Positions 8,627 to 64,000 of a stretch of 64,000 nucleotides of DNA are shown here, one piece after another. Source of the stretch: an uncultured archaeon. Lineage in GTDB: Archaea > Asgardarchaeota > Thorarchaeia > Thorarchaeales > Thorarchaeaceae. The stretch lies in NCBI GenBank assembly GCA_964610875.1, contig CAZSWP010000018.1, positions 1-64,000 of the forward strand, in the 5' to 3' direction. A program made the position numbers and the translations under genes. The notes beneath the pieces were generated by a model. That model saw only the letters and a list, made by a program, of their open reading frames with translations. It was not told the DNA's origin and did not search any database. How positions within the stretch are numbered: position 1 is the stretch's first letter; every line of letters starts with the position of its first letter.

Positions 8627-9481
8627 ATGAAAAGGGGGTTATTAACAGCTGCCAAACACCTGAACAATCCTAGACATTTTTGGTGGGAGATTAGATACTT
8701 CAGAACGGAATAAATTCATAGGTCACCTGACACCTGTGTGCTGACCCCACGGAGTAACGTTCTAGTGCCGTCCCTGGAAGGACAAGACTCCGGTGTCCAG
8801 ATCTGTCCATCTTACAATGAACGGTTTGTAATCCTATTACTAATACTATCTATGGTTAATTCCACTTCTGCCACACATAGTCAAGGTCTTGAGTGGAAAT
8901 ACGAAGAAGGTGCGCAGTATGACTTTAGAGAAGTATATTATCGCTCTTAAAATGAGTCAACAACACTCGTAGAGGATATGGTATACTATGCAATTGCTCC
9001 AGAGTATACTGAACTAGTCGACCCACTAAATGAAAGTAGCATGATACCAATTCGTCGTGCGCCTACTTACTGGTCAAACGGAACAGAAATGAACCTATTA
9101 CCAATTCGTTTTGCTGTGCCTGTAGGCAATTGGTCTCTATTTAGTGAAATAGTTATGAGTCGCTCCGATGATAATAATGGTTACAATATAATTGACACGA
9201 TTGATGTATGGGGATACGAAGCGGAATACCAAGCCGGTATTGACCAAGTCTATCATTCAATGGAATATTCGAAAAACGATGGTGTGTTAGTTCGTTTGGT
9301 TTTTGAATTCACCATTCTAAGTACTACACATTTGACAATAGTAGAGAGGGTGGGTTTAGGACCAAGTATCCTTCAAATTGGCATAACTCTTGTTGCAGCG
9401 ATTGCAGTTGTAGTCGTCTTGGTTATGTACAATCGTTACAAAAAAAAAAATGAAATCTCTTTAAACAAAAAAAGATGGTGA
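8627..9481 (+). pseudogene. Paralog of 7872-8570, disrupted by a mini-element and a nonsense codon
   Basis: Removing 8639-8824 gives MKRGFVILLLILSMVNSTSATHSQGLEW... The in-frame TAA at 8948-8950 aligns with Tyr in the paralog, and the frame continues into ORF 8978-9481. Confidence 0.8.
8639..8824 (+). mobile_element. 186-bp non-autonomous (MITE-like) derivative of the IS607-like element
   Basis: The left end GGG|TT..ACAGCT..CCTAGACATT and the right end TGCCGT..TTACAATGAACGG|TT match the ends of the large element. Excision restores the host frame. Confidence 0.85.
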
Positions 9482-16069: not shown

Positions 16070-16168
16070 TTCTCTGTCCTCTGGGCTATTTCTCTCCTTT
16101 ATGATAAGGCTTGTGTCATTGACATAGAATTAGCACGAGTCTGCAAGGGTTTGATAACAGCTACATGA

Positions 16169-16189
16169 AACCCAGACAAACCTAGACAT
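16169..16189 (+). repeat. Left subterminal repeat (two 10-bp units), inverted partner of 24697-24717
   Basis: AACCCAGACA-AACCTAGACA-T matches the reverse complement of 24697-24717 at 19/21 positions. Confidence 0.8.
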
Positions 16190-16217
16190 TGATTAGGTTA
16201 TAGTTTTACGAAAGACC

Positions 16218-16838
16218 ATGTTCTCAGTAGCACAAGCTGCTCTTCGCCTTGGTGTCTGTGTCAAGACCCTCCATCGATGGGACCATGTAGGCAAGCTCCA
16301 CTGCACGAGGACTCTGGGTGGGCATCGCAGGATCCCCCTCTCTGAAGTCAACCGTCTGCTGGGCATCTTCCATCGGAAGCTCCTCGACACTCCACCTCAA
16401 CGAAAGAGATGCGCCATCTATGCACGAGTATCAGGTCATCGACAGAAGACTGATGGAGACCTTGACAGACAACTTCACACGCTCACACAGGAATGTAAGA
16501 ACCTATTCAGGACCAGCCCCATCGTCCTCTCAGACATCGGTTCCGGACTGAACATGCGACGCAGATGCCTCAAACGGTTATTGAAACTAGCTAGACAAGG
16601 TGTGATCCATGCAGTGCTCCTCACTCATAGGGACAGGCTAGCACGATTTGGAGTGGAACTTATTGAACGCATCCTAGAAGAGTATGGAGTCAAAGTTATT
16701 GTGCTCTATGAGGAGACCCATCAGACCCCACAAGAGGAACTGGTCACTGACATGATGGCCCTGCTAGCCTCCTTCTCAGGGAGGGTCTATGGGCTTCGGG
16801 CCCGACAACACAGCAAGTCTACCACTCTCCAAACCTGA
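16218..16838 (+). CDS. tnpA: IS607-family serine recombinase/transposase TnpA
   Basis: MerR-like HTH (LGVCVKTLHRWD..GGHRR), then YARVS (catalytic Ser), DIGSGLN, RDRLARFG and ELVTD...SFSGRVYGLR. Confidence 0.95.
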   Translation: MFSVAQAALRLGVCVKTLHRWDHVGKLHCTRTLGGHRRIPLSEVNRLLGIFHRKLLDTPPQRKRCAIYARVSGHRQKTDGDLDRQLHTLTQECKNLFRTSPIVLSDIGSGLNMRRRCLKRLLKLARQGVIHAVLLTHRDRLARFGVELIERILEEYGVKVIVLYEETHQTPQEELVTDMMALLASFSGRVYGLRARQHSKSTTLQT

Positions 16839-19800
16839 ATCCTACCTTCTTCATCAGCTGAATCACATCTTCTTCAATAGCTCCGTGTTCTCTGTCTGCA
16901 ATACCATAGCTCTCCAGTGCACTAGTAATATCACTACTGACCGTGACTGGGGAGATGAGGTCTCCTGTGGGAGGTGAGAATGGTGGAATAACTCGGACTC
17001 CCACAACATCTCCAGTAGTGGTTTCAAAGACCGCTTCGATATACCGCATCTTGGTCGTACGGTCAGTACAGAGCTGCACCTCTCTATAGTGTACATCCTC
17101 TCTTGAAAGGACATCTTCTTCAGCAGCAGAGTCCTCCCTGCTTTCTCGTTCTGTTTTATAAAGCTCGGAGATTCCTGCAAGTCGTTCTGTCAGTTCTGTT
17201 TCATTCAACAAAAGGTACTGCCCGATCTCACTCCCCTCCTCCTCCATAGCTTCAATGAGTGCTTCACAGTCCGTTTCCGTGAAGGAATGACAATAGATTT
17301 TGACCTCTGTCCCATCCTCTTCCCATCTCCTGATGGTGAGGGTGTAGTCACCTGCACTTCCAGAAATTTCTCCAATGCATTGGGGTGGGGTCTCACTCCA
17401 TCCGCGACAAATCAGGTCCTCCCGGAGAGAACCAAACACCGTTTCTACGTTTTCAAGGTGAAGGATATCCACCACACTGGAGACGACCTCTTGGAATTCT
17501 GCTAGGATGCTCTCAAGGTCACGAGTCGGGTCCAATTGGAACGAATATAGATTGTTCATCCAGATCTTCCCTGTGGTGAGGGAAACCACATGCCAGTTGA
17601 TGGCAGTCTTGGAGAGAGAGACCTGTAGATTCCATGAGTTTCTGGTCCAGTCGAAATCATCTGGATGAACACTCCGCACTGACTCTTGCAACCTTGGATA
17701 CGACCGGAGGTGATAGTCCTCCACTCCGAGAAGCCCTCGTACATCCCATTTGACCTCATGGAACAGCTGATTCTTGGTATCGAAGAGTCTTGTTGTTTCC
17801 ACCAGGAGTCCTGCTTCAAAGAGGGAGAGGACCACCCCATCATAGGGGGCCAGAGATGAAGTTGAAGAGACTCCCGTTATAGATATTCTGACCTCATTGT
17901 ACCAGTCATCCACCGCATCAAGCTTCATGGTCACTGGAGCTACCTCTTGCATGGAGAGGAGTTCATGACAGGTCGTCGGATACTGGTAGAGGTCACGGAG
18001 GAACCAGCTCCGTTTCACCAGCGGGATGAGAAAGGTCAGTGATCCATCATAGGTGATGTCACTACGATGGTCCCAGCTCAGATAGCCGATAGTGGTTTCA
18101 TACCCCACACCACGACTGATTGGTCGTCTGAGAACAGACACCAGTTCATCTGTGTCAGTAATGCGTTCCTGTACATCCCCTTCTGTGGTCTCGAAGTCAA
18201 TGACATACTCCTCCCATTCCTCGTCAAGAGCAACCGTGAGGGTAACAGGAATGACCTCTTTCTTGAGTTGGACAAGTCGTAGTAGCTCGGTGTCTATCTG
18301 TTGAGATGAAGTCTTGCCAACTACTGGAAGATGGAGATTTTCAAGAGAGAGGGAGGGGACTACGAACGGATTGGAGAGCTTGATCCAGGGGACAATCCCA
18401 TGTTCTCTATTGAGCGTACTATGTTCGAACACATAGGGAGTCCATGTGTCTTCCTCCTCAAGATACAGCCAGAGAATCCTATGTTGTTCCACTTCAGTGA
18501 TTAGAACATCGGTACGTTGTGAAACACCAAGTGCTCCTTGTGCCATCTCATTGAGAACTGCTGGATCTGTTTCACACCGAGACCATCCCTCAGAGAGCCA
18601 TGGTCCTAAAAGTCCTGTTATGCATCCTGTGAGGTAACCATGGGATGTATGAGGGACTACTAGTATAGCTGCAGAGAGGTTGCCTTCCTCTAGCCAGATG
18701 ATATGTCCTGCTCGACTGCTGGTTCTAAGAGAATGCTCAATGTGCAGCTGCATCAGGATCCTTTTTCGCCATTCCAAGTCCCTATGAATGGCATAGAGGT
18801 CATACTTTGCCTCTATATTCTCAGTATCTGAACGCAGTCCCATCTGATAGAGTGTCCATCCTGTGACTGCCTCCCAGAGCGTTTCTCCAAGGGCACTCTG
18901 AAGATCATCATCATCCTCTTGCTGTATGACAGCACAGACCAGAAGAAAGAGATTGTTTCCGTATAGGAGAAAGAGGTCTGGATGCTTCTCCAACGTTCCC
19001 TCCAGTGCCTGTCTGTGGTCAGAGTTCAGAAGGTGAAAGAGCGCTTTCCGTTGTGGACGGAGTGTCTCCCAGAGAGGTACAAGAGTATCTTCAGAGAGGA
19101 TGATCTCTTGGATTTCATACAGTACTTGTAGTAATTGCTTTGAATCATGGCGTCCCGTTCCCTTTATCGAACTGAGTATGCTTTTACATAGAGAGACTAT
19201 CTTCTCACAGGTACTCTGAATCCCTTTTGGAAGCAGTCTTTCGAGAAGATACTGTGCTGCTGAGTAGATTCTCCTAATCTCCCACAGTCGGGAAGCGACC
19301 GTATCTAGAGAAAAATATAAACTGGAGGGAGTGCTTGGTGGTCGGCAGTGTGTCCATATTGTCCCATCCTCATTCTCAGTTAACACTTTTCTGGGGGTTC
19401 TCTCATAGAACCATCTCCGGGTAATCTTGTTGGCTGATGAATGTGTCTTGCTTGAGCGCGGCGATTCAGGAGGTGGTCTGTCAGAGCAGAATCGCACTCT
19501 TTGCATGAGGGTCTGAGATGATGATGCAACTACTTCATGGGAAACAAATGGTATCTTCTCTTCTATGGTTTCATCAAAGACCTCCTCTTCCGACCTTGGT
19601 CTTCCAAGACTGGGAATTAGGTCTTCAGTAGATGTTAACATCTCAACATGCCGTTCTCTGGTGAGTCGTTCAATGGAGCTCTGGATAGATATGAGTCTGG
19701 TTTCTCTTGCATACATGTTTCTCTGTGTGTGTACTTCTCTCCTCACATCTGCTTCAGTGATATGTCCGTCCCGCCGAGAGCTCCCTCTGAACCGTCGAGA

Positions 19801-22335
19801 GAAGTCAATGAGGTATGGCACATGAATCATGGTCTGCCAAGGTCGTGTCTTTGTTGGGATGTCCTGCACGATGATTCGCAGGTCCTCACGCCATGGGACC
19901 AGATTACCAAAGCAACGAGGATGGAGAGGGATGTTGTAGAGAATCTCATCGAGGTGATACCGTCGTGGTGAGTCAAAGGGAAGAGGCGAGATACCGTTCC
20001 GCTGGTAGTCTGCTGAGAATCGAGTATGCTGTACTCCCTCATCGATCCAGATGAGATTCGTATTCTTGGTAGGGAGTTGTTCAAGTAGTAGGAGTTCCAG
20101 CCGCTTGAGAAGATATCCCTCAGAAGAGGGAGCAACCTTCTTGAGTTCACTCCACCCATCAAGAATGATTATGTTTTGTTGTTCTTTGTCAATATGTTCT
20201 AGAATCTGCTCCAGTGTATTCTCTGTGTCTGCGAGCAGTTCATCCACTGGAGTTTCCGGAGAGATGAACACGATGTCCTTCAAGATGGCTTGAAGTTCAT
20301 GATATTCTTGCAGAGTCAATTTCTTTTCACCAAGGAGGAAGTCTAAGCCAAATCGACTCTGCACAAGCTGCTCAGAAGAGAAGTCACCAAGGAGGTCTAT
20401 CCAATAGACCTTGATAGGGTCTTCTTCTACCTCTCTGCATTCTCTAATGTGATGGAGGAGATGATAGTTCCGAGACCGATATGCAGCGGTCGTTCCTGAA
20501 GAGGTGGGTGCAGGAATTGATACATAGAGGGTGAAGAACCGTTCGTCTGCAACTCTGTCTTTGAAAGGATTTTCAACAGTTGGAATTGTTGGTTCAGCAA
20601 GGTCTTGTAGCAGATAAATGGGACCTCTTGAGGGCAGAGTGAGTAATGCAACACGTTCTTTGATAGTATAAGAAGATGGAGCATCTTCTGTGGGGCATTC
20701 TCCTACTTCTAGCTTCTTACTGATAGCTTCCAGAATCCTTTGGAAATCATCAAAGACATCCTCTGGTGACTGGTCCGTGTCCAGTATGATAATGCCTTTC
20801 CAGAGAAACATGGGTGGAGTCATGTCTGAATCCATTATGTCACCGTATTCATCTAGCAATAGGTTCTCATAGGCGCGGAGTTGGTCAATGTGCTCCTTAT
20901 CAGGTGGCGAGATTAGTAATGTGTCCCATTCCCCTTGTGTCAGTCCTCGCTTCCAGACATGGGACACTGGAACATAGTCGTCCTTGGTCTTACTCCCAAT
21001 CTTCTTACCAAAAATATTGAATTCAAACCCCGTCTTGGTCTTGACCTCTAAGACCATGACCGGAGTCCAGATGCACCTCTTGCCCACCTTTCGTCTGATG
21101 AAGAATGTTAGGTCTACCTGTCCCTGTCTGTTCTTGAGAGGGAGTTCTCCCACAACTAGGACGGATGAAGGTGTATCCATCATTTTATCTCCTGCAAAGA
21201 CGACCTGTTTCAGGGACTTGGGATGATGCAGGGCTGAGAGGAGGACACGATGCCAGCGAGTTCCCTCCTCTGAACTCAACTGGAGCATTTGCTTTGTGAG
21301 CTTCTCCACATCTCGATCATGGAGGATACCCTGATCTATCAGATTGAGAATATGGCAATGCTGTTTCTTCTGTTCCTCGTTATCAGAGTTCTCTAGACTT
21401 GCTTCTATGATACTCTTGAGATAGTCAAGCGAGTACTCCGGTTCATCATCAAGACTGGCAGTGATGGATCTCCTCTCTCCGATATGCCGCCCATAGAGTG
21501 CCCGTAACTCAAGAATGATGTCCCAAAGAATCTTACGGGCATCTTTGATAAAGTAGGGTTTTCCATCTTTGCCTTCCGTGTAGACCCAGTCAAGATAGGG
21601 TCGAAGCTTGAGAATGAGGCGTCTGATATAGCGATGAGCCTCCGTACGAGGGACATTGTGGATGAAGCACTGACGGCAAAGCTCGTACACGTGACACCTG
21701 ATCATATCAACAAAGTCAAGACTGGGAAGGGTGGGATGAGCGAGAAAGACCTGTGGTGTCGTGGAAGTGCCACTGTAGCCTGCTTTCCAGTAGACCTTGA
21801 CATTCTCATCCACACTTGGTTTTACGTGTTCATACTCTCCAGTCTGTTTCAGACTGTCGATGAGTTCCTTGGCATAGACCTTGTATGAACCGTCAGGATA
21901 CCTCCAGATTTGAAAGAACCGAGGTTCAGGAAAGGGATACCTGGTCATAGCGAGCTCTCGAAGCCGTGCCCCAGCGTAATTGAGCAATGCATTGAGAGGC
22001 CCTACTGTACCTTTTGCCCAATCATAGACCCTCTTTCGTTCCTTGTTTCCATAGGGGACTGTACTCATCCAGAGAAATTGAAGGAACGTTTTGCGGATAT
22101 TTGCTTCCTTCTTACTCAAAGGAAAATAGTCGGGCCTTATGCCTTCTTGTTCGTCTAGTGTGTGCCGAACTTCATTCCACATCTTGTAGATGGACTTTCT
22201 TATACTCCGATACTGATGTTTGGTTCGGGACTCGATTATCTTCACTAATCCCCGAATGCCCTTGTAGGACGCCCGTGTAAGGACCACATTTGGTCGGAAC
22301 GCTCGCGCTATTCTTCCCATTCTTATTCTGTACAA
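16819..22335 (-). CDS. Giant (1838 aa) element-encoded protein with PD-(D/E)XK nuclease motifs and a degenerate P-loop-like region
   Basis: Long uninterrupted ORF. It contains GELPL..GQVDL..VLEVKTK..QLRAY, then APTSSGTT / YWIDL / IIILDGW. A homolog lies at 61271-64000. The start may be the ATG at 22320. Confidence 0.8.
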   Translation of the reverse strand: MYRIRMGRIARAFRPNVVLTRASYKGIRGLVKIIESRTKHQYRSIRKSIYKMWNEVRHTLDEQEGIRPDYFPLSKKEANIRKTFLQFLWMSTVPYGNKERKRVYDWAKGTVGPLNALLNYAGARLRELAMTRYPFPEPRFFQIWRYPDGSYKVYAKELIDSLKQTGEYEHVKPSVDENVKVYWKAGYSGTSTTPQVFLAHPTLPSLDFVDMIRCHVYELCRQCFIHNVPRTEAHRYIRRLILKLRPYLDWVYTEGKDGKPYFIKDARKILWDIILELRALYGRHIGERRSITASLDDEPEYSLDYLKSIIEASLENSDNEEQKKQHCHILNLIDQGILHDRDVEKLTKQMLQLSSEEGTRWHRVLLSALHHPKSLKQVVFAGDKMMDTPSSVLVVGELPLKNRQGQVDLTFFIRRKVGKRCIWTPVMVLEVKTKTGFEFNIFGKKIGSKTKDDYVPVSHVWKRGLTQGEWDTLLISPPDKEHIDQLRAYENLLLDEYGDIMDSDMTPPMFLWKGIIILDTDQSPEDVFDDFQRILEAISKKLEVGECPTEDAPSSYTIKERVALLTLPSRGPIYLLQDLAEPTIPTVENPFKDRVADERFFTLYVSIPAPTSSGTTAAYRSRNYHLLHHIRECREVEEDPIKVYWIDLLGDFSSEQLVQSRFGLDFLLGEKKLTLQEYHELQAILKDIVFISPETPVDELLADTENTLEQILEHIDKEQQNIIILDGWSELKKVAPSSEGYLLKRLELLLLEQLPTKNTNLIWIDEGVQHTRFSADYQRNGISPLPFDSPRRYHLDEILYNIPLHPRCFGNLVPWREDLRIIVQDIPTKTRPWQTMIHVPYLIDFSRRFRGSSRRDGHITEADVRREVHTQRNMYARETRLISIQSSIERLTRERHVEMLTSTEDLIPSLGRPRSEEEVFDETIEEKIPFVSHEVVASSSQTLMQRVRFCSDRPPPESPRSSKTHSSANKITRRWFYERTPRKVLTENEDGTIWTHCRPPSTPSSLYFSLDTVASRLWEIRRIYSAAQYLLERLLPKGIQSTCEKIVSLCKSILSSIKGTGRHDSKQLLQVLYEIQEIILSEDTLVPLWETLRPQRKALFHLLNSDHRQALEGTLEKHPDLFLLYGNNLFLLVCAVIQQEDDDDLQSALGETLWEAVTGWTLYQMGLRSDTENIEAKYDLYAIHRDLEWRKRILMQLHIEHSLRTSSRAGHIIWLEEGNLSAAILVVPHTSHGYLTGCITGLLGPWLSEGWSRCETDPAVLNEMAQGALGVSQRTDVLITEVEQHRILWLYLEEEDTWTPYVFEHSTLNREHGIVPWIKLSNPFVVPSLSLENLHLPVVGKTSSQQIDTELLRLVQLKKEVIPVTLTVALDEEWEEYVIDFETTEGDVQERITDTDELVSVLRRPISRGVGYETTIGYLSWDHRSDITYDGSLTFLIPLVKRSWFLRDLYQYPTTCHELLSMQEVAPVTMKLDAVDDWYNEVRISITGVSSTSSLAPYDGVVLSLFEAGLLVETTRLFDTKNQLFHEVKWDVRGLLGVEDYHLRSYPRLQESVRSVHPDDFDWTRNSWNLQVSLSKTAINWHVVSLTTGKIWMNNLYSFQLDPTRDLESILAEFQEVVSSVVDILHLENVETVFGSLREDLICRGWSETPPQCIGEISGSAGDYTLTIRRWEEDGTEVKIYCHSFTETDCEALIEAMEEEGSEIGQYLLLNETELTERLAGISELYKTERESREDSAAEEDVLSREDVHYREVQLCTDRTTKMRYIEAVFETTTGDVVGVRVIPPFSPPTGDLISPVTVSSDITSALESYGIADREHGAIEEDVIQLMKKVGFRFGEW

Positions 22336-22508
22336 TACCTTGTTCTTATTTACTTATAAGTAATAGTACTTTTATTAAGAAACCATAATATAGAGTTTAA
22401 AACATTATAATCACTCAAAATCAAAAAATAAGTTCTCATAATATTCTAATCTTGATAACTTTATAACTAAATATGACAATATAACCCCTGCTATAGAATA
22501 GAGAGTGG
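22336..22508. promoter_or_regulatory. AT-rich divergent promoter region (cargo / tnpB)
   Basis: Very AT-rich spacer inside a GC-richer element, with TATA-like CTTATAAG (~22353) and TTTATAA (~22460). Confidence 0.55.
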
Positions 22509-24704
22509 ATGACGATGAAGCAAGACTCACCCCGGTGTCATCTCCGGGTGCAGAAGGAGGAATCTCCGAAGCAGAAGACAATAGATGACAACTTTATAAC
22601 TGATTCATCGACGTCCGAAGAGAACAGACCACTGAAGACCGGGTTGAAATACCTTGTAGAGTCCTTCACACTCTGTTCTATTGATCGTGAAGTGAACAAG
22701 AAGGGGAAGATAAAGCGACCTGGTCCTCGCTTTCGTCGAAAGACAAGAGCTCATGACATCCAGACTCCTTTCGAGCAAGCTACTGGGAGAAAAGTCCAGA
22801 ACCCCGACCTATCCCTATTAGGTTCTTACTTTGAGAAGTATGTTGAGTTAGTGAATCTTGTCCTTGAGCGAGTGTATTCTCATCAGGGAAGGATTGATGC
22901 TCTAGGGGAGGAGCTGCATTCCTATCGTGGTCAGGGGTATGTCCTGTTGAAGAAAGAGGAATACCTCACCTATAGCCGCAATGAAGAGGTCAAGGCCCAG
23001 TGCTTTGAACGCATGTATCGCAATGTCTTGGAACAGGCTGCGAGGGTCATTCATTCGAACTGGATGCGAAGACAGTTGATGCTCAGTGCTATTACTTCTA
23101 TCAAAGAGGATAGAGACATCGTGCTGTCTTTCTTGAAGAACAAGTACATCCCAGCTAAGTTGGCAAAGGTGGTGCGTGAGAGTTGCGAGTGTGTCAAGAA
23201 CAATGGTTCAGGATATTACTACTCCCTGTCTGTATTGAAGCAGCTCAGGAAAAGGATAGATGAACACATCCTCTCAGAGCGAGGAGAACCCCTTGGCTCT
23301 CGAAAGTCCCAGCGAAGACGAGTGAGTGGCTATCTCAGAGATACTACTGAAGGTGCTGGTGTTCTTGCCAGTGTTGATGCCCTCTTACAGGAGTTTATTG
23401 AGAGTGGATATTCCTTTGAAACGCCAAGGATGTTCTCCTATACCGGGGATTTCTCAGCTTCCACAGAGAACAGTCCCGGACAGGGCTACTGGTACTCACG
23501 GGACCCTGAGAAGGAGCATGAGATATTCTTCTTCCTCAAACTCCCCGAACCCCTTGAAGGTACAGAACAAATGGGTTCACCCTATAGAACAAACACACTT
23601 CCTTTCCGATTTCTCAATTGGTTACCACGAGCTGCAAAGAGGGACAGAGAGAAGGCAAAATTAGCTGATAAAGAAGGGAAATCACTTCGAGCCAGGAAGC
23701 TCAGGTTTCGAGCACGAAGGTTCGAGGACATGCAGCAACAGCTTATCAACACCATTGAGCTCCAACATGCGACCTATCAACTTGCACGGTTGCAGTCCAG
23801 ACGAGTGAAGGACACTGAAAAGATCAAGATACTACAGGAGAAGATAGACGGACTTCGAGAAGCACGGACCTGTGGCCCGCCAAGACTTCTTCTTCGTGGA
23901 CACCGAGTAGAACTCCAGATTCCTTTCTTACCACCAACCAGAGAGATGCTGGATGATGAACTTGGGACAACCCGGACCTATCACAGGCGAGCAGGTGCAG
24001 ACCGGGGTGTCCGAGTCCCCATTGTCCTCTCTGTACGGAATGGCGAGGGGGAGTTTGTGGATGAGCTTGTGGCTTGTGATGAACTACTCCAGAAACGGGA
24101 CCTCCTCAGGGAGCAGACCAAAGCCCTGAGCTCACAAGTCAAACGGATGCGGAACAACTGGGACCGCAAGTACCCTGACCATTCTCGTTCCTATCCCGAC
24201 CACCTGTTGAAGAAGGAACGACACCTTACAGCAATCTGGAGAAAGATTCGCAGACTCGATAGAGAGATAGCTCGTCAGGTGGCAAGTCAGACGGTCTGGT
24301 TCTGTGAGATGCACGGAGTGAAGATGCTGTACTTCGAGAACCTCAAGAACTACACACCTGCCGCCGGGTATGGAAATCTGTCATGGCGATTGAGCTCAAA
24401 CCTCTGGTCAAAGGTTCTGGATACGGTCAGGTACATGCGCCAGTCCCTCGGACACAAGTATGGAGGGATATGGACCGTGAGTCCGGCATGGACCTCTCAG
24501 AAGTGTCATGTCTGCGGAGAGCGAGGCATTCGCGTAGAAAAACCGGATGCCACAGATGAATACAGAGGAGGAGAGTTCTTCCATTGTGAAAATTGTGGAT
24601 GCAGAATCCATGCGGATGTCAATGCCGCACGAAACATCATTGATGTGAAGTTCAAGACACCCAGTGCCGTTTCTGGGCAGACAACACTAGACCCCCATGT
24701 CTAG
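22509..24704 (+). CDS. tnpB: Large TnpB/Cas12-like RuvC RNA-guided nuclease (731 aa)
   Basis: RuvC-I GADRG, RuvC-II YFENL, Zn finger TSQKCHVCG..CENCG and RuvC-III HADVNAARNI. It lies at the right end of an IS607-like element. Confidence 0.9.
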   Translation: MTMKQDSPRCHLRVQKEESPKQKTIDDNFITDSSTSEENRPLKTGLKYLVESFTLCSIDREVNKKGKIKRPGPRFRRKTRAHDIQTPFEQATGRKVQNPDLSLLGSYFEKYVELVNLVLERVYSHQGRIDALGEELHSYRGQGYVLLKKEEYLTYSRNEEVKAQCFERMYRNVLEQAARVIHSNWMRRQLMLSAITSIKEDRDIVLSFLKNKYIPAKLAKVVRESCECVKNNGSGYYYSLSVLKQLRKRIDEHILSERGEPLGSRKSQRRRVSGYLRDTTEGAGVLASVDALLQEFIESGYSFETPRMFSYTGDFSASTENSPGQGYWYSRDPEKEHEIFFFLKLPEPLEGTEQMGSPYRTNTLPFRFLNWLPRAAKRDREKAKLADKEGKSLRARKLRFRARRFEDMQQQLINTIELQHATYQLARLQSRRVKDTEKIKILQEKIDGLREARTCGPPRLLLRGHRVELQIPFLPPTREMLDDELGTTRTYHRRAGADRGVRVPIVLSVRNGEGEFVDELVACDELLQKRDLLREQTKALSSQVKRMRNNWDRKYPDHSRSYPDHLLKKERHLTAIWRKIRRLDREIARQVASQTVWFCEMHGVKMLYFENLKNYTPAAGYGNLSWRLSSNLWSKVLDTVRYMRQSLGHKYGGIWTVSPAWTSQKCHVCGERGIRVEKPDATDEYRGGEFFHCENCGCRIHADVNAARNIIDVKFKTPSAVSGQTTLDPHV

Positions 24705-25125
24705 CTTTGTCTAGGTTACAATCAACGGTTCTACCTAACTCTCTACACTTCTCAAGCATCTCTTCATTAGGATAATCTTTTACCTTAACCGGCTGTCCGT
24801 CAATGAGTAAAGCATCTACATTCTGAAGCGCATCAGCAATCTCATCGGGAGCTTCTCCACTCCACCCATATGAACCAAATGCTGCAGCTCTAATACCTTT
24901 TAGTGATGTCATCTTCGATAATATTTGTTTAATCTTTGGAAGAGGTCTCTTCATCCGCGTTGAACTTCCCATAGCAATAGCGCATGCATCATCGAGGTCT
25001 GTATAGTCTTTTGCCTCTATAAGAACACATTCCTTCCCAGATGCAGTTACTCCTTCGCACACTGCTTCAGCCATTGTCTTTGTTCTACCTCGTGTTGACT
25101 CATAGATCACATTTACCTTTGACAT
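24652..25125 (-). CDS. Flavodoxin-like (FprA C-terminal-like) protein, 3' end interrupted by the element
   Basis: Motifs VIYESTRGRT, AFGSYGWSGEA and EKCRELGR. Its native last codons lie at 16130-16149, and the current tail is element-derived. Confidence 0.85.
   Translation of the reverse strand: MSKVNVIYESTRGRTKTMAEAVCEGVTASGKECVLIEAKDYTDLDDACAIAMGSSTRMKRPLPKIKQILSKMTSLKGIRAAAFGSYGWSGEAPDEIADALQNVDALLIDGQPVKVKDYPNEEMLEKCRELGRTVDCNLDKARHGGLVLSAQKRHWVS
24660..24748 (+). ncRNA. Predicted omegaRNA 3' scaffold (to 24728) plus flank-derived guide; 5' extent unknown
   Basis: Hairpin CCCAG/CTGGG whose loop CCGTT is complementary to the terminal AACGG (pseudoknot). A second hairpin is AGACAA-ca-CTAGAC/GTCTAG-ct-TTGTCT. 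Two other copies show compensatory changes. Confidence 0.65.
24697..24717 (-). repeat. Right subterminal repeat (two 10-bp units)
   Basis: A-TGTCTAGCTT-TGTCTAGGTT, inverted relative to 16169-16189. Confidence 0.8.
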
Positions 25126-47814: not shown

Positions 47815-48276
47815 ATGGCAAAGCTCGAACAATCTGGTGTCTTTCTGTTATCCGATAGTTTTGAGTCAACCACTCAATTCTATGAAAATATACTATCCCC
47901 GGTGCCGTTGCTGGGCTGACAACATTGGACTACCATGTCTAGGTTACAATCAACGGTTGAGTTTGGTTCATTTGGCTTCTGAATATATAGCTCGACCAAG
48001 TAAATATGCCTGAACCTTGGTTCAAGGAAAAAGTGTCTGAGAATTACTTGAACTACTTAGAGAAAGGTGTTATTGATTCACTACCGTTATGCTCCCAATG
48101 TGATAATCCCTTTTCAAACGGATGATATTCAGGAAATACACAAGCAAATCTTTGAGAGAAAACCTAAACCCGAATTCATCACGGATATCCTGCGAGTCAC
48201 TTTCAGCATTCCTTACTCGTTCTTCGAATTCGCCAACCCAGAAGGAAACATGGTAGAGGTTTTTCAATTCACCTGA
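47815..48276 (+). pseudogene. VOC/glyoxalase-family pseudogene containing an element remnant
   Basis: The N-terminus ...STTQFYENIL and the C-terminus FEFANPEGNMVEV are separated by an element end, stops and frameshifts. Confidence 0.6.
47898..47956 (+). mobile_element. Solo right end of the IS607-like element
   Basis: CCCGGTGCCGTTGCTGGGCTGACAACATTGGAC..CATGTCTAGGTTACAATCAACGG aligns with 24660-24728, lacking one 10-bp unit. Confidence 0.85.
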
Positions 48277-60196: not shown

Positions 60197-60668
60197 TCAC
60201 CAGGTTTTATGTTGTCATTTTTTGATATTGAAATATCATGCCAAAATGATAGTTTGTTACAATGATTTTCCGTACACAAGTCAATATCTACTATTTGTTG
60301 CGCGCATTTCCAATAACGGGAAAAAATGTACGAAATTGTGCCCAATTATTACACAAGGCAGAGAAAATCGGCAAATTGGGGTGTTTCATTACCAGAAACG
60401 AATTCTTCAGACTTTTAGGGTTCATTCTTAGTGTACACGCGATTACTCTCATCTACTAAATGCGATTCTTCCTCATCTGGTTGGTGATTCGGAGAATCAC
60501 GACTAATTGCTAACTAAAGAATGTCTTTGTAACAATCAGTGGGATAGAAATTATCCTCATCCTTCTCGTGATTTGTATACCATACTTGAGCGAAGAACGG
60601 GTTGCCGACAGCTAGTAAAAATCAAGATAAACCTAGACATTGATTAGAAGTCTCTTTGAAGGAACGGT

Positions 60669-61283
60669 ATGTTCTCAGTATCACAAGCAGCTCTCAGGTT
60701 GGGAGTATGTATCAAGACCATCCATCGATGGGACAAGGCTGGCAAGCTCCACTGTCATCGTACCATCGGTGGACACCGCCGCATCTCCCTTGCAGAGGTC
60801 AACCGCATCCTTGGGCTCTTTCATCGGGACCTCATCGATCATCCTGATAGGAAACGATGTGCCATCTATGCCAGGGTGTCCAGTCACCGACAGAAGCGTG
60901 ATGGGGACCTTGACCGACAACTCCAGACCCTTACCAAGGAGTGCAGGAAACGATTCAAGTCACGTCCTCTGGTCTTCTCAGATGTTGGCTCCGGGCTGAA
61001 CATGAAACGGAGGGGGCTCGCCAAGCTCTTCTCCCTCGCAAAGTCAGGAGCTATCCACACCCTCCTCATCACTCACAAAGATAGATTAGCTCGGTTCGGA
61101 GTCGAGCTCCTTGAGCGGATCCTCACTGACTACGGCATCAGACTCCTTGTCCTCTACCATCCAGAAGACCAGTCACCACAACAAGAGCTCGTCACCGACC
61201 TCATGTCCCTCATCGCCTCCTTTTCGGGTCGCGTCTATGGACTCCGTTCTCATCAGTCCAAGATTGTCCCTCAGTCCTCATAG
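60669..61283 (+). CDS. tnpA: IS607-family serine recombinase TnpA (copy 2)
   Basis: Same motifs as 16218-16838 (YARVS, DVGSGLN, KDRLARFG, SFSGRVYGLR). Confidence 0.95.
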   Translation: MFSVSQAALRLGVCIKTIHRWDKAGKLHCHRTIGGHRRISLAEVNRILGLFHRDLIDHPDRKRCAIYARVSSHRQKRDGDLDRQLQTLTKECRKRFKSRPLVFSDVGSGLNMKRRGLAKLFSLAKSGAIHTLLITHKDRLARFGVELLERILTDYGIRLLVLYHPEDQSPQQELVTDLMSLIASFSGRVYGLRSHQSKIVPQSS

Positions 61284-64000
61284 AACACGACTCCCTCCTT
61301 GACCAGTACCTCTTCCACAATATCAAAGACATCACTGAGGATAGCGCTAGCAACTTCTAGTCCTTGAAGGTTACCCTGTATCTCCCCTCTTACCATCTCA
61401 CGCGATTCTCCTCCAGTGTTGCGAGAAACTTCGCATAACTTGCCCACATATCCAATGACCGTGAACTCATCCTCGCCTCCAGCAGCATATTCGATCGTGA
61501 TGATGACCTGGTCATCCCGCACTACCGCATCTACTACCTTCAAGACCTCTAGCCCTTGGGTGGTCCCTTCACTTTCTACCTTCTTCTGTGGTAGGTCTTG
61601 CTCCTCGAAATCGAGTTCGACATATCTGTCCTCCTCTCTTACCTGTTCTTCAGACCATCCTCGTTCTAGCAGAGCCTCTCGGAACTCGGCAAGCTTCTCC
61701 TCGATTCCATTCACCTGATTCAGCGCCACCACCTCTGACACCTTCTCCCGGAAGTGGTCAAGTGCCTCATCTACTGATACATCCTCAAGGAACAGGTGCG
61801 AGAAGGTCTTGTTCCGCCAGGTTCTCCTTTTCTGTGGAGAATAGATGGACCATGAGACCTCGCGATGATAGCACAGGTGTGCGCTGAACTTCCACGTTCC
61901 ATCGTTCGACCAATCGAACTCGCTCTCGTCAGCTGAGTCCAGCGCTTCTCGCATTCGGGGGTATCTTTGGAGGTGCCAGAACTGCTCGTCCATGATGGCT
62001 GTCATATCCATCTTCACGGGATGCAGGGTACTCGTCTTGGGGTCGTACAGCTCGGTGCATTCAGCCAGCAGGCATAGCTGTGACTTCGACAACTCCACCT
62101 GTTCCAGCTCTCGAAGCAGCGAGGTCTGAGGCATACCAATCATCTTTACCCGATAGGAGTTCCGCTCCTGTTGTACCGGTTTCAGGGTGATATCCTCCCC
62201 GGTCGATGCGGCAAGGAGGTGCTTGCAAGTGGGGGGGTAGTGGTACTCGTCCGGAAAGAACCAGCTCCGATGCACCAATGGCTTGAGGAACGAGAACCCT
62301 GTCCCGTACTCGATATTCTCGCGATGGTCCCAGGTGATGAACTTTCGTTGGGTACGATATCCAGTAGCGGACCAGACAGGGGTACGGAGGAACTGCACGA
62401 GGTCATCGGTCCGGGAGAATTCTCTTTGCTCTGATAGTGACTCTGTGCTGATGTGCACCACATAGACCTCAAGGTCCTTGTCCGCAGACACAAGTAGTTT
62501 GGCTTGCTGCATCTCATACTTGATCTGGGTCATGGATGCAAGGACATCCAACGCGGAGTCAGGAAAATCCGGTTCTGTACCAAGGTCGAACACCATTGAC
62601 AGGTCCTCAAGGATGAGCCACGGGATGACATGATGTCTTCCTGCAGGTCTCCCGTGCTTGACGAGGAACGATACCCAGATGCGTTCATCCGCTTCGTTCA
62701 AAGCTGGAAGATGGAGGATATCATTTCCTTCAAAAGTGCTCATGATGACTGTGGTGAATGATTTCGAGATGAGGGCGTTATCAGCAAAGTCCTTGAGTGC
62801 TAGCCCATCTGTCGTCACAGCATGGTATTTGGGAGGGAGCCAGGTGTCTTGTAAGTTCTTGATGATGCCGGAAAGATAGGTCCCATCCTCTTGCGGAAGG
62901 AGAAAGAGGGCATCAAAGACCATGTCGTTCTCCTCCCAGTAGATGACACCAACTCGTTGCTGATGCACTGCAGGAGCCTTTGGGAGGGGAATCTCTGCCA
63001 ACCTTCTCGCTCGTGTCCGAAGCTTGGTGAAAATGGACACGAAACTGTACACAGTACGAACGGCCTCATCCTGCAAGGACAGTCCGATTTGATAGAAGGT
63101 CCATTCTGCGATGCTTCTCCAGAGCACCTCGATATGAGCTCGTTCTAGTCTATCGTTGACAGCGAGCAAGGCAAGGAAGAGGTTGTTCCCATATAGCAAG
63201 AAGAGGTCTTGGTTCTGTCCCAACACGTCCTCTAGGGACTCCCTGTTCTCCGACTTCAATAGGTCCTTCAGTCCTTCCCTGTAGGGAGTAAGGAACTCCC
63301 AGAGCTCCCTTCGATCCTTGTCCTGCAGGATGATCCGTTGTACTTCCTTTAGTGCTCCAAGGAAGAACGTGGAAGTCCGTACCTGTGGCTGGTCCTTGAG
63401 GAGGGCGAACTGTCTCTTGCAATGGTCTTCGACCTTCTTGCAGCAGGTCCGTACTCTCTTTGGAACGAACTCCTTGGTCCATAAATAATGTGCAGCGTTC
63501 AGTAGTCGCCTGAGTTCCTTCTCTCTATCCTCCATGGTATCGATCTGTGAAGGAACAAGGGTTGTTCCCTGTGGCGGATAGGTAACCGTCAATGGACCTT
63601 CAGGGTCTTCCGGGAACTGTCGTGGGGTCTGCTCGTATCTCCACGGGCGAGTGATCTGTGAAGATGTCTTCTGGGAGAGGGTATCGATGAACCTGTTCGA
63701 CCCCTTCGGGGTTGGCGGTGGTCTAGTGACATCCACCTGCACGCGGTCACGGAACACTGTCCCTCCGCTAGCTTGCACAGGTGCGATACGTGATTGCCAT
63801 CTCTGTGCACCCTCTTCATTTTGGATTGGACTTTTTCCTTCTGAGACTGCCCGTTCTCGAAGGACACTGGGAATCAGGGTAAGGGCATCATCTATCACTC
63901 GTTCATCAACATCGTCCATGGGAACTGAGATGGACGTTAATCGCACTCCCTTCCCATGCATAGGGGTCAATCTGAATTGCTCCTGCTGGATCACCTCATA
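61271..64000 (-). CDS. C-terminal part of the giant cargo protein homolog (5' truncated by window edge)
   Basis: Shares LFLLYGNNLFL, WDHR, PLV.RSWF, YP.TC..LL, YPR and FDW with the 1838-aa protein. The frame stays open to 64000. Confidence 0.85.
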   Translation of the reverse strand, partial: YEVIQQEQFRLTPMHGKGVRLTSISVPMDDVDERVIDDALTLIPSVLRERAVSEGKSPIQNEEGAQRWQSRIAPVQASGGTVFRDRVQVDVTRPPPTPKGSNRFIDTLSQKTSSQITRPWRYEQTPRQFPEDPEGPLTVTYPPQGTTLVPSQIDTMEDREKELRRLLNAAHYLWTKEFVPKRVRTCCKKVEDHCKRQFALLKDQPQVRTSTFFLGALKEVQRIILQDKDRRELWEFLTPYREGLKDLLKSENRESLEDVLGQNQDLFLLYGNNLFLALLAVNDRLERAHIEVLWRSIAEWTFYQIGLSLQDEAVRTVYSFVSIFTKLRTRARRLAEIPLPKAPAVHQQRVGVIYWEENDMVFDALFLLPQEDGTYLSGIIKNLQDTWLPPKYHAVTTDGLALKDFADNALISKSFTTVIMSTFEGNDILHLPALNEADERIWVSFLVKHGRPAGRHHVIPWLILEDLSMVFDLGTEPDFPDSALDVLASMTQIKYEMQQAKLLVSADKDLEVYVVHISTESLSEQREFSRTDDLVQFLRTPVWSATGYRTQRKFITWDHRENIEYGTGFSFLKPLVHRSWFFPDEYHYPPTCKHLLAASTGEDITLKPVQQERNSYRVKMIGMPQTSLLRELEQVELSKSQLCLLAECTELYDPKTSTLHPVKMDMTAIMDEQFWHLQRYPRMREALDSADESEFDWSNDGTWKFSAHLCYHREVSWSIYSPQKRRTWRNKTFSHLFLEDVSVDEALDHFREKVSEVVALNQVNGIEEKLAEFREALLERGWSEEQVREEDRYVELDFEEQDLPQKKVESEGTTQGLEVLKVVDAVVRDDQVIITIEYAAGGEDEFTVIGYVGKLCEVSRNTGGESREMVRGEIQGNLQGLEVASAILSDVFDIVEEVLVKEGVVFYED

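Follow-up and report, generated by a model that had tools for sequence, protein, structure and literature searches.

The stretch of DNA analysed here (the window) comprises the first 64,000 nucleotides (nt) of contig C18 (67,782 nt) from a Thorarchaeota genome of 3.75 Mb in 124 contigs (G000). Near the right edge of the window, an Asgard-archaeal element that combines an IS607 recombinase (TnpA), a Cas1-like giant protein and the RNA-guided TnpB is indeed present a second time, in strongly diverged form. This copy (copy 2) has the layout left end, tnpA on the plus strand, giant gene on the minus strand, tnpB on the plus strand and an omegaRNA-type right end. We believe that copy 2 is probably intact, was inserted independently and belongs to a Thorarchaeota lineage of IS607-family transposons, in which the giant protein would serve as a TnpB-linked DNA-processing partner. 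This reading is built on the gene order, the ends shared with other copies, the GGTT found on both sides, a scarless junction in a host gene, the linkage of the giant gene to tnpB, and predicted folds with conserved catalytic residues. The features of copy 2, its target and the reference element are as follows; coordinates without a contig name are those of the window, and a vertical bar within a sequence marks the junction.

16150-24728: copy 1, the complete reference element, in the same window
60598..60601, plus strand: host side of the left junction of copy 2 (..GAACGGG|), placed by host codon restoration
60600-60603: core GGTT over the left junction, recurring over the right junction at C86:52-55
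60602..60668, plus strand: left end of copy 2 (TTGCCGACAGCT..AACCTAGACATTGATTAG..) as far as the start of tnpA2, placed by alignment with the left ends of copy 1 and a mini-element
60669..61283, plus strand: tnpA2, IS607-family serine recombinase of 204 amino acids (Pfam, NCBIfam, 70% identity to TnpA1)
61271..64000, minus strand: C-terminal 909 codons of giant2, running out of the window (listing of open reading frames, ORFs)
C18:61271-66565, minus strand: whole giant2 gene, 1764 amino acids, without internal stop (ORF listing)
C18:64886-66565, outside the window: N-terminal half of giant2, with predicted Cas1-like domain and PD-(D/E)xK nuclease
C18:60513-60601 and C86:54-1552, minus strand: host gene cut by copy 2, encoding a conserved protein of 528 amino acids

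TnpA2 contains an N-terminal MerR/HTH_17 domain (residues 1-47, Pfam 8.5e-10), followed by a Resolvase domain that carries the YARVSS serine (residues 65-195, 4e-21), and it passes the NCBIfam transpos_IS607 equivalog with 183.3 bits at a cut-off of 110. The initial annotation had judged by eye that the two TnpA proteins are roughly two-thirds identical, and pairwise alignment gives 70% over 197 residues. No match to TnpA2 was found by exact look-up in public assemblies. The left-end motif and TnpA start context noticed earlier in both copies were confirmed by alignment of the ends: the start context ATGTTCTCAGTA is identical in copies 1 and 2, and their left ends have ..GG|(G/T)TTG..ACAGCT..(A/G)A(C/T)AAACCTAGACATTGATTAG in common. 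The ACAGCT and AACCTAGACATTGATTAG motifs are present in the left ends of copy 2, copy 1 (16150-) and a mini-element (8639-), and a related element, L004, has the same left end as copy 2. The G+C content of copies 1 and 2 is 0.47-0.52, while that of the surroundings is ~0.40. The convergent overlap of tnpA with a giant-protein homolog is also real, and amounts to 13 nt in copy 2.

The right junction of copy 2 was located on contig C86. The right end of a related element, L019, reads ..CCCAGTACCGTTGCTGGGCGGACTGCCTAGACTCCATGTCCAGGTTTGTCCAGTTTACAATCAACGG|TA, and 53 nt identical to it are found at the start of C86, the end of C39 and the end of C35, with TT next in each case; a fourth such terminus, 95% alike, is at the start of C35 (C35:1-61). 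In two related genomes, the counterparts of a C86 gene and of the C18 gene to the left of copy 2 adjoin each other, with orientations that match. An open minus-strand frame of C86 continues into the right end, and when C18:..60601 and C86:54.. are joined, the result is an ORF of 528 amino acids. Five single-copy orthologues (522-546 amino acids) have C-termini that match the tail of the joined ORF, ..PPPWDYDKMAKE|NPFFAQVWYTNHEKDEDNFYPTDCYKDIL*, so that the join restores the conserved last 29 residues of the host gene. Therefore copy 2 ends at ..CAATCAACGG|TT, as the initial annotation had predicted with its right end of AACGG|TT. GGTT is present at both junctions without target duplication, and the host codons ..K-E-N-P-F-F.. 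are restored only by cuts within GGTT. As only such cuts, at both junctions, restore the conserved N-P-F-F codons, the insertion is scarless, and the candidate empty-site sequence of copy 2 is ..GAACGGGTTCTC... The insertion is confined to this lineage, since the orthologues have no interruption. It replaces the last 29 residues of the host protein with a single Arg and a stop. The 528-residue protein belongs to no Pfam family and has a Cys-rich C-terminus (..HWCPEC..).

Contig C18 extends 3,782 nt past the window and contains the start of the divergent long tnpB that had been predicted downstream. This gene, tnpB2, begins at C18:66744, diverges from giant2 across a 178-nt gap and stays open through 346 codons to the contig end. 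The N-terminal half of TnpB2 is 41% identical to the 731-residue TnpB1, in which Pfam recognizes a Cas12f1-like_TNB domain (50.9 bits, cut-off 26.3). Its closest relatives are full-length or partial proteins of other Thorarchaeota with 79-84% identity, and a metagenome scan with the N-terminal half gave no match. Thus both the 5′ part of a tnpB and a matching right end, whose absence downstream had been named as the refuting outcome, are present, the right end on C86. In complete relatives, tnpB stands next to the right end, which is the expected IS607 layout. The 3′ half of tnpB2 is not on any contig of the genome, and no contig overlaps the end of C18. Copy 2 therefore extends from C18:60602 to the contig end, through ~1.1 kb of unassembled tnpB 3′ half, to C86:1-53, and its total length is estimated at 8.3-8.4 kb from alignment of the 553-residue partial TnpB of L019, which starts at residue 170. 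Over the last 220 nt of C18, the summed contig depth is 3-4x that of the rest. This rise and the four terminal right ends account for the break in the assembly: the tnpB 3′ half and right end of the copy-2 subfamily are multi-copy, and there may be more copies of this type than the assembly contains. In two microbial-mat runs, the Logan contigs over this stretch are short, have a depth of only ~4-5x and give no bridge to C86.

Other observations concern the relatives and variants of these genes. An isolated 300-nt relic of a copy-2-type tnpB, with 79% DNA identity to L019, is found at G000:C16:21323-21622. Close relatives of the long TnpBs are found in the ordinary IS607 layout in two loci, L017 (G008:C1:298500-311500) and L025 (G023:C25:209400-219600), where a tnpA fragment is directly upstream of TnpB on the same strand and there is no giant gene. 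A low-depth Logan contig (two runs of one microbial-mat study) joins C18:61231 to C18:66519. The 5287 nt skipped match the giant2 ORF almost exactly, and the joint would leave TnpA2 ending in ..SFSGR*; it may come from a population variant of copy 2 that lacks the giant, or from a chimeric unitig.

The initial annotation had noted four traces of the family in 64 kb. All four are real, namely copies 1 and 2 and the following two.

8639-8824: mini-element of 186 nt
47898-47956: solo right end

The expectation of many copies genome-wide was likewise met by a census of the ends, with 55 exact right-end termini where 0.03 would be expected by chance. A T follows in 54 of the 55. The genome has ~26 complete mini-elements, and family copies are mostly of this 186-nt kind; TnpA is encoded only by copies 1 and 2.

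The nuclease half of the giant protein lies beyond the window, as predicted. We obtained an AlphaFold2 model of giant2 residues 1-560 from the family alignment, with a mean predicted local distance difference test (pLDDT) score of 83. Cas1 structures rank first in the Foldseek search with this model, weakly (E 0.06, probability 0.98), and the match starts at residue 1 of the giant and at residues ~85-139 of the Cas1 chains, indicating that the Cas1 N-terminal beta domain is absent. The Cas1-type residues E74, N112, N116, H186, D193 and D196 are kept in all 37 aligned family members, with E/D exchange allowed, as are the NALLNY motif and the nuclease residues E384, D395, E/D417 and K419. In hhalign alignments, the E, NALLNY and H..D..D blocks are collinear with those of 13 canonical Cas1 proteins taken from related genomes, at probabilities of 4-20%, with the best score after removal of a 52-residue insert. 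According to the predicted fold and these motifs, the N-terminal third of the giant is a Cas1 catalytic-domain homologue lacking the Cas1 N-terminal beta domain, and is followed by a Cas4/RecB/MGME1-type nuclease with an E..D..(D/E)xK motif. Both domains are predicted to be active.

The giant goes unrecognized by the sequence libraries searched. An exhaustive HMMER search with the N-terminal profile returned 157 representatives at E <= 0.001 among 1.84 billion, and the best 150 of them are giant-length proteins or shorter pieces. Neither giant2, searched entire and in pieces, nor any of the 37 family members matched Pfam, NCBIfam or PADLOC, and PADLOC at E <= 0.01 found no family for giant1, giant2 or the N-terminal half of TnpB2. 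A sequence-profile search of the PDB with the 37-member profile gave only chance rows and nothing significant, and the ESM Atlas feature search yielded no more than Mrr/STAND leads below the threshold. Copy 2 holds three genes only, with no Cas2-like gene among them. The in-window part of giant2, modelled with a pLDDT of 78, had no Foldseek match and only weak VIA rows, and can be divided as follows.

Residues ~855-988: disordered linker
Residues ~999-1180: helical domain
Other in-window residues: several alpha/beta domains without clear known fold

Inside giant2 and beyond the window, a G+C-rich stretch of 35 nt (C18:64098-64132) has 4-5x summed contig depth, with loose ends flanking it left and right in both runs; other organisms or repeats probably share it.

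The in-window part of giant2 is 32% identical over 793 residues to the C-terminal half of the 1838-residue giant1, and the whole proteins are 39% identical over 1679 residues. The giant protein had been described as far more diverged than TnpA yet intact. The gene is indeed intact, with 1764 codons and no stop, but TnpB (41%) is about as diverged as the giant, and between copies 1 and 2 only TnpA stands out as conserved. The presence of two intact lineages in one genome at 70%, 41% and 39% identity (TnpA, TnpB and giant) shows that the giant has been kept under selection through a long divergence. The initial suggestion of an old, diversified family that retains the giant gene agrees with our data: the family forms 88 clusters at 90% identity, nearly all from Thorarchaeota, as are nearly all relatives that carry names, and the best match to giant2 has 45-53% identity. 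Fourteen other elements were measured against copy 2, with the following identities.

TnpA: 62-77%
TnpB N-terminal half: 38-59%
Giant N-terminal 560 residues: 29-60%
Giant C-terminal half: 19-40%

In pairs for which the TnpB and giant trees are concordant, the giant outpaces TnpB and TnpA, mainly through its C-terminal half (giant versus TnpB identities of 58% versus 73%, 47% versus 67% and 53% versus 62%). The giant is therefore fast-evolving and intact, as first proposed, chiefly in the C-terminal half that lies in the window.

Near their tips, the tree of TnpB and that of the giant are concordant: copy 2 clusters with L002 and L004, whereas L026 is the companion of copy 1. Deeper in the trees they conflict, and one giant clade (L023, L028, L024 and L034) is paired with TnpBs of three clades. 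In another locus, L003 (GCA_016839605.1, JAEOTX010000057.1, 3539-11268), a giant of the giant2 clade, 47% identical to giant2, adjoins an unrelated TnpB of 609 residues. Therefore, TnpB and giant have swapped partners while the pairing itself has always been kept. The giant gene and tnpB stay together as a divergent pair whether or not tnpA is present. Elements bearing tnpA are found in every clade. Loci without tnpA retain the right end and in some cases traces of the left end, which is consistent with tnpA having been lost repeatedly. Five distant giant homologues with 23-31% identity are also present in the same genome (contigs C78, C3, C37, C47 and C104). None of them has a tnpA, and three of the five adjoin an opposite-strand match to the TnpB C-terminus.

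From these features we propose how the element may work. As in other IS607 elements, TnpA would carry out crossover in the GG(TT) core and so move the element itself and, in trans, the ~186-nt mini-elements. By analogy with what is shown for IS605/IS607 TnpBs, TnpB would recut emptied sites, using a guide RNA that covers the right end and continues into the flank, and the element would thereby be copied back. The giant would not be the transposase of these copies. As a putative Cas1-type integrase/nuclease joined to a Cas4/MGME1-like end-processing nuclease and coupled to TnpB, it would most likely act on TnpB-made DNA ends, either resecting them or integrating or repairing them to the benefit of the element, and its variable C-terminal half may adapt it to partners or substrates. 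Several points weigh against this proposal. We infer the role of the giant only from its domains and linkage, its Cas1 likeness comes from a predicted fold and motifs, and the activities of TnpA, giant and TnpB are predicted. The Pfam Cas_Cas1 model misses both giants and all 37 family members, and its only matches genome-wide are on C70 and C114. The 3′ half of tnpB2, with ~1.1 kb, is absent from the assembly, and this missing part would hold the RuvC residues and omegaRNA of copy 2. Moreover, it has been suggested in the literature that the Cas1-like protein, aCas1, is itself the transposase (PMC10691335).

According to this published view, aCas1 replaces the Y1 or serine recombinases and is likely the transposase (Altae-Tran 2023, PMC10691335), so that the element would be casposon-like and the IS607 TnpA a secondary passenger or a recent addition. 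The many loci that consist of giant and tnpB without tnpA, and the conserved Cas1 catalytic residues, speak for it. Casposases make insertions flanked by terminal inverted repeats (TIRs) with target duplications, whereas copies 1 and 2 have asymmetric IS607-type ends with the GG(TT) core on both sides and no duplication. The same ends are carried by the ~26 gene-less mini-elements, TnpA (62-77%) is better conserved than either the giant or TnpB, and the left-end remnants and common right end of some tnpA-less loci fit a loss of tnpA. We consider this explanation quite unlikely for the element; a transposase role of aCas1 fits copies 1 and 2 poorly, and may apply to the tnpA-less loci. Equally little weight is given to the suggestion of the initial annotation that the giant is a conflict-related effector, that is, a defence nuclease in an arms race hitch-hiking in the transposon. 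The C-terminal half of the giant is its least conserved part (19-40%, compared with 29-60% for the N-terminal part and 62-77% for TnpA), a PD-(D/E)xK nuclease is present, and a language-model search gave weak leads to Mrr-STAND proteins (scores 0.79-0.82), but these scores are within the range reached by shuffled proteins and the giant has no PADLOC, Pfam or NCBIfam match. Transposon cargo normally varies between copies, whereas the giant is constant: it is fixed beside tnpB in every clade and has ~100 invariant residues over the 37 aligned members. The available pairs, at <=65% protein identity, are too diverged for a positive-selection test. As the core is a Cas1-like integrase with a Cas4/MGME1-like nuclease, by the predicted folds, and fast change in one half is no evidence of conflict, the idea of a conflict effector is unsupported.

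The pair of a Cas1-like domain and a PD-(D/E)xK nuclease mirrors Cas4-Cas1 fusions (7mi4 and 8d3p are among the matches), and could be read as an adaptation-like module that renews or installs TnpB guides, an analogue or forerunner of CRISPR spacer acquisition. A hypervariable stretch beside a CRISPR-repeat-like GTTCACTCA motif has been reported in aCas1-TnpB loci (Altae-Tran 2023, PMC10691335), and we found GTTCACTCA in L003, near the 3′ end of the gene for the 609-residue TnpB. The IS607-type copies (copy 1 and the relatives of copy 2), however, end at ..CAATCAACGG with neither an internal variable segment nor GTTCACTCA, their guide is simply the flank, and there is no Cas2 and no array nearby. 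Hence we regard such a module as very unlikely. A bolder form of the partner role that we favour, in which the giant is a single-chain Cas1-Cas4-type machine that works with TnpB to capture or integrate DNA at RNA-guided cuts, is a speculative thought that we would call unlikely. If true, it would mean that a Cas12 ancestor is physically and functionally joined to a Cas1 integrase outside a CRISPR array, and that there is a second, TnpA-independent, RNA-guided insertion route.

The type of element is already known, and what is gained here is detail and testability, not discovery. New are the reconstruction across two contigs, which places the scarless target exactly within a conserved gene, the occurrence of two deeply diverged intact lineages together in one genome, the rate gradient within the giant, and the evidence for partner swapping between TnpB and giant. 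The scarless junction in the conserved host gene fixes the exact ends of copy 2 and its target core GGTT. It argues that the serine recombinase, and not the Cas1-like protein, inserted copy 2, and thus bears on the proposal of aCas1 as transposase. The two lineages are a natural pair for swap experiments, TnpA against ends and giant against TnpB.

Copies 1 and 2 agree in gene order, in end motifs, in the convergent overlap of tnpA with the giant gene and in the divergent arrangement of the giant gene and tnpB. The two differ in sequence (70% identity for TnpA, 41% for the TnpB N-terminal half and 39% for the giant); in the trees of TnpB and giant alike, copy 2 falls into a different clade, together with L002 and L004, and its right-end subfamily is multi-copy and broke the assembly. 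Like IS607 (PMC110970), copy 2 has a TnpA with an N-terminal MerR-type helix-turn-helix and a resolvase domain, asymmetric ends, no target duplication and a GG-containing core common to target and ends, and the element family has tnpB at the right end. Unlike IS607, the element has an opposite-strand gene of 5.3-5.5 kb wedged between tnpA and tnpB, a TnpB of ~720-730 residues, roughly twice the usual size, and a length of 8.3-8.6 kb compared with about 2 kb. With Cas4-Cas1 fusions and casposases, the giant shares the predicted Cas1 alpha-helical catalytic domain, the E/H/D(E) motifs and a PD-(D/E)xK nuclease. It differs from them in the missing Cas1 N-terminal beta domain, the reversed domain order and ~1200 further residues, and the element has no Cas2, CRISPR array, TIR, target duplication or family-B polymerase. 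The association of Cas1 with TnpB in Asgard archaea has been published (PMC10691335; PMC8730458), and we infer, from a comparison by description, that the giant family is the published aCas1 family. Copy 2 resembles the Asgard aCas1-TnpB loci (Cas1H-Asgard-1/-2, PMC10691335) in its Thorarchaeota host, a Cas1-like gene beside TnpB and mobile-element behaviour. Those loci are described as having Cas1 in place of the recombinase and as the likely transposase, and the reported GTTCACTCA motif is absent from IS607-type copies, whereas copy 2 adds an IS607 serine recombinase, IS607-type ends and scarless GGTT junctions.

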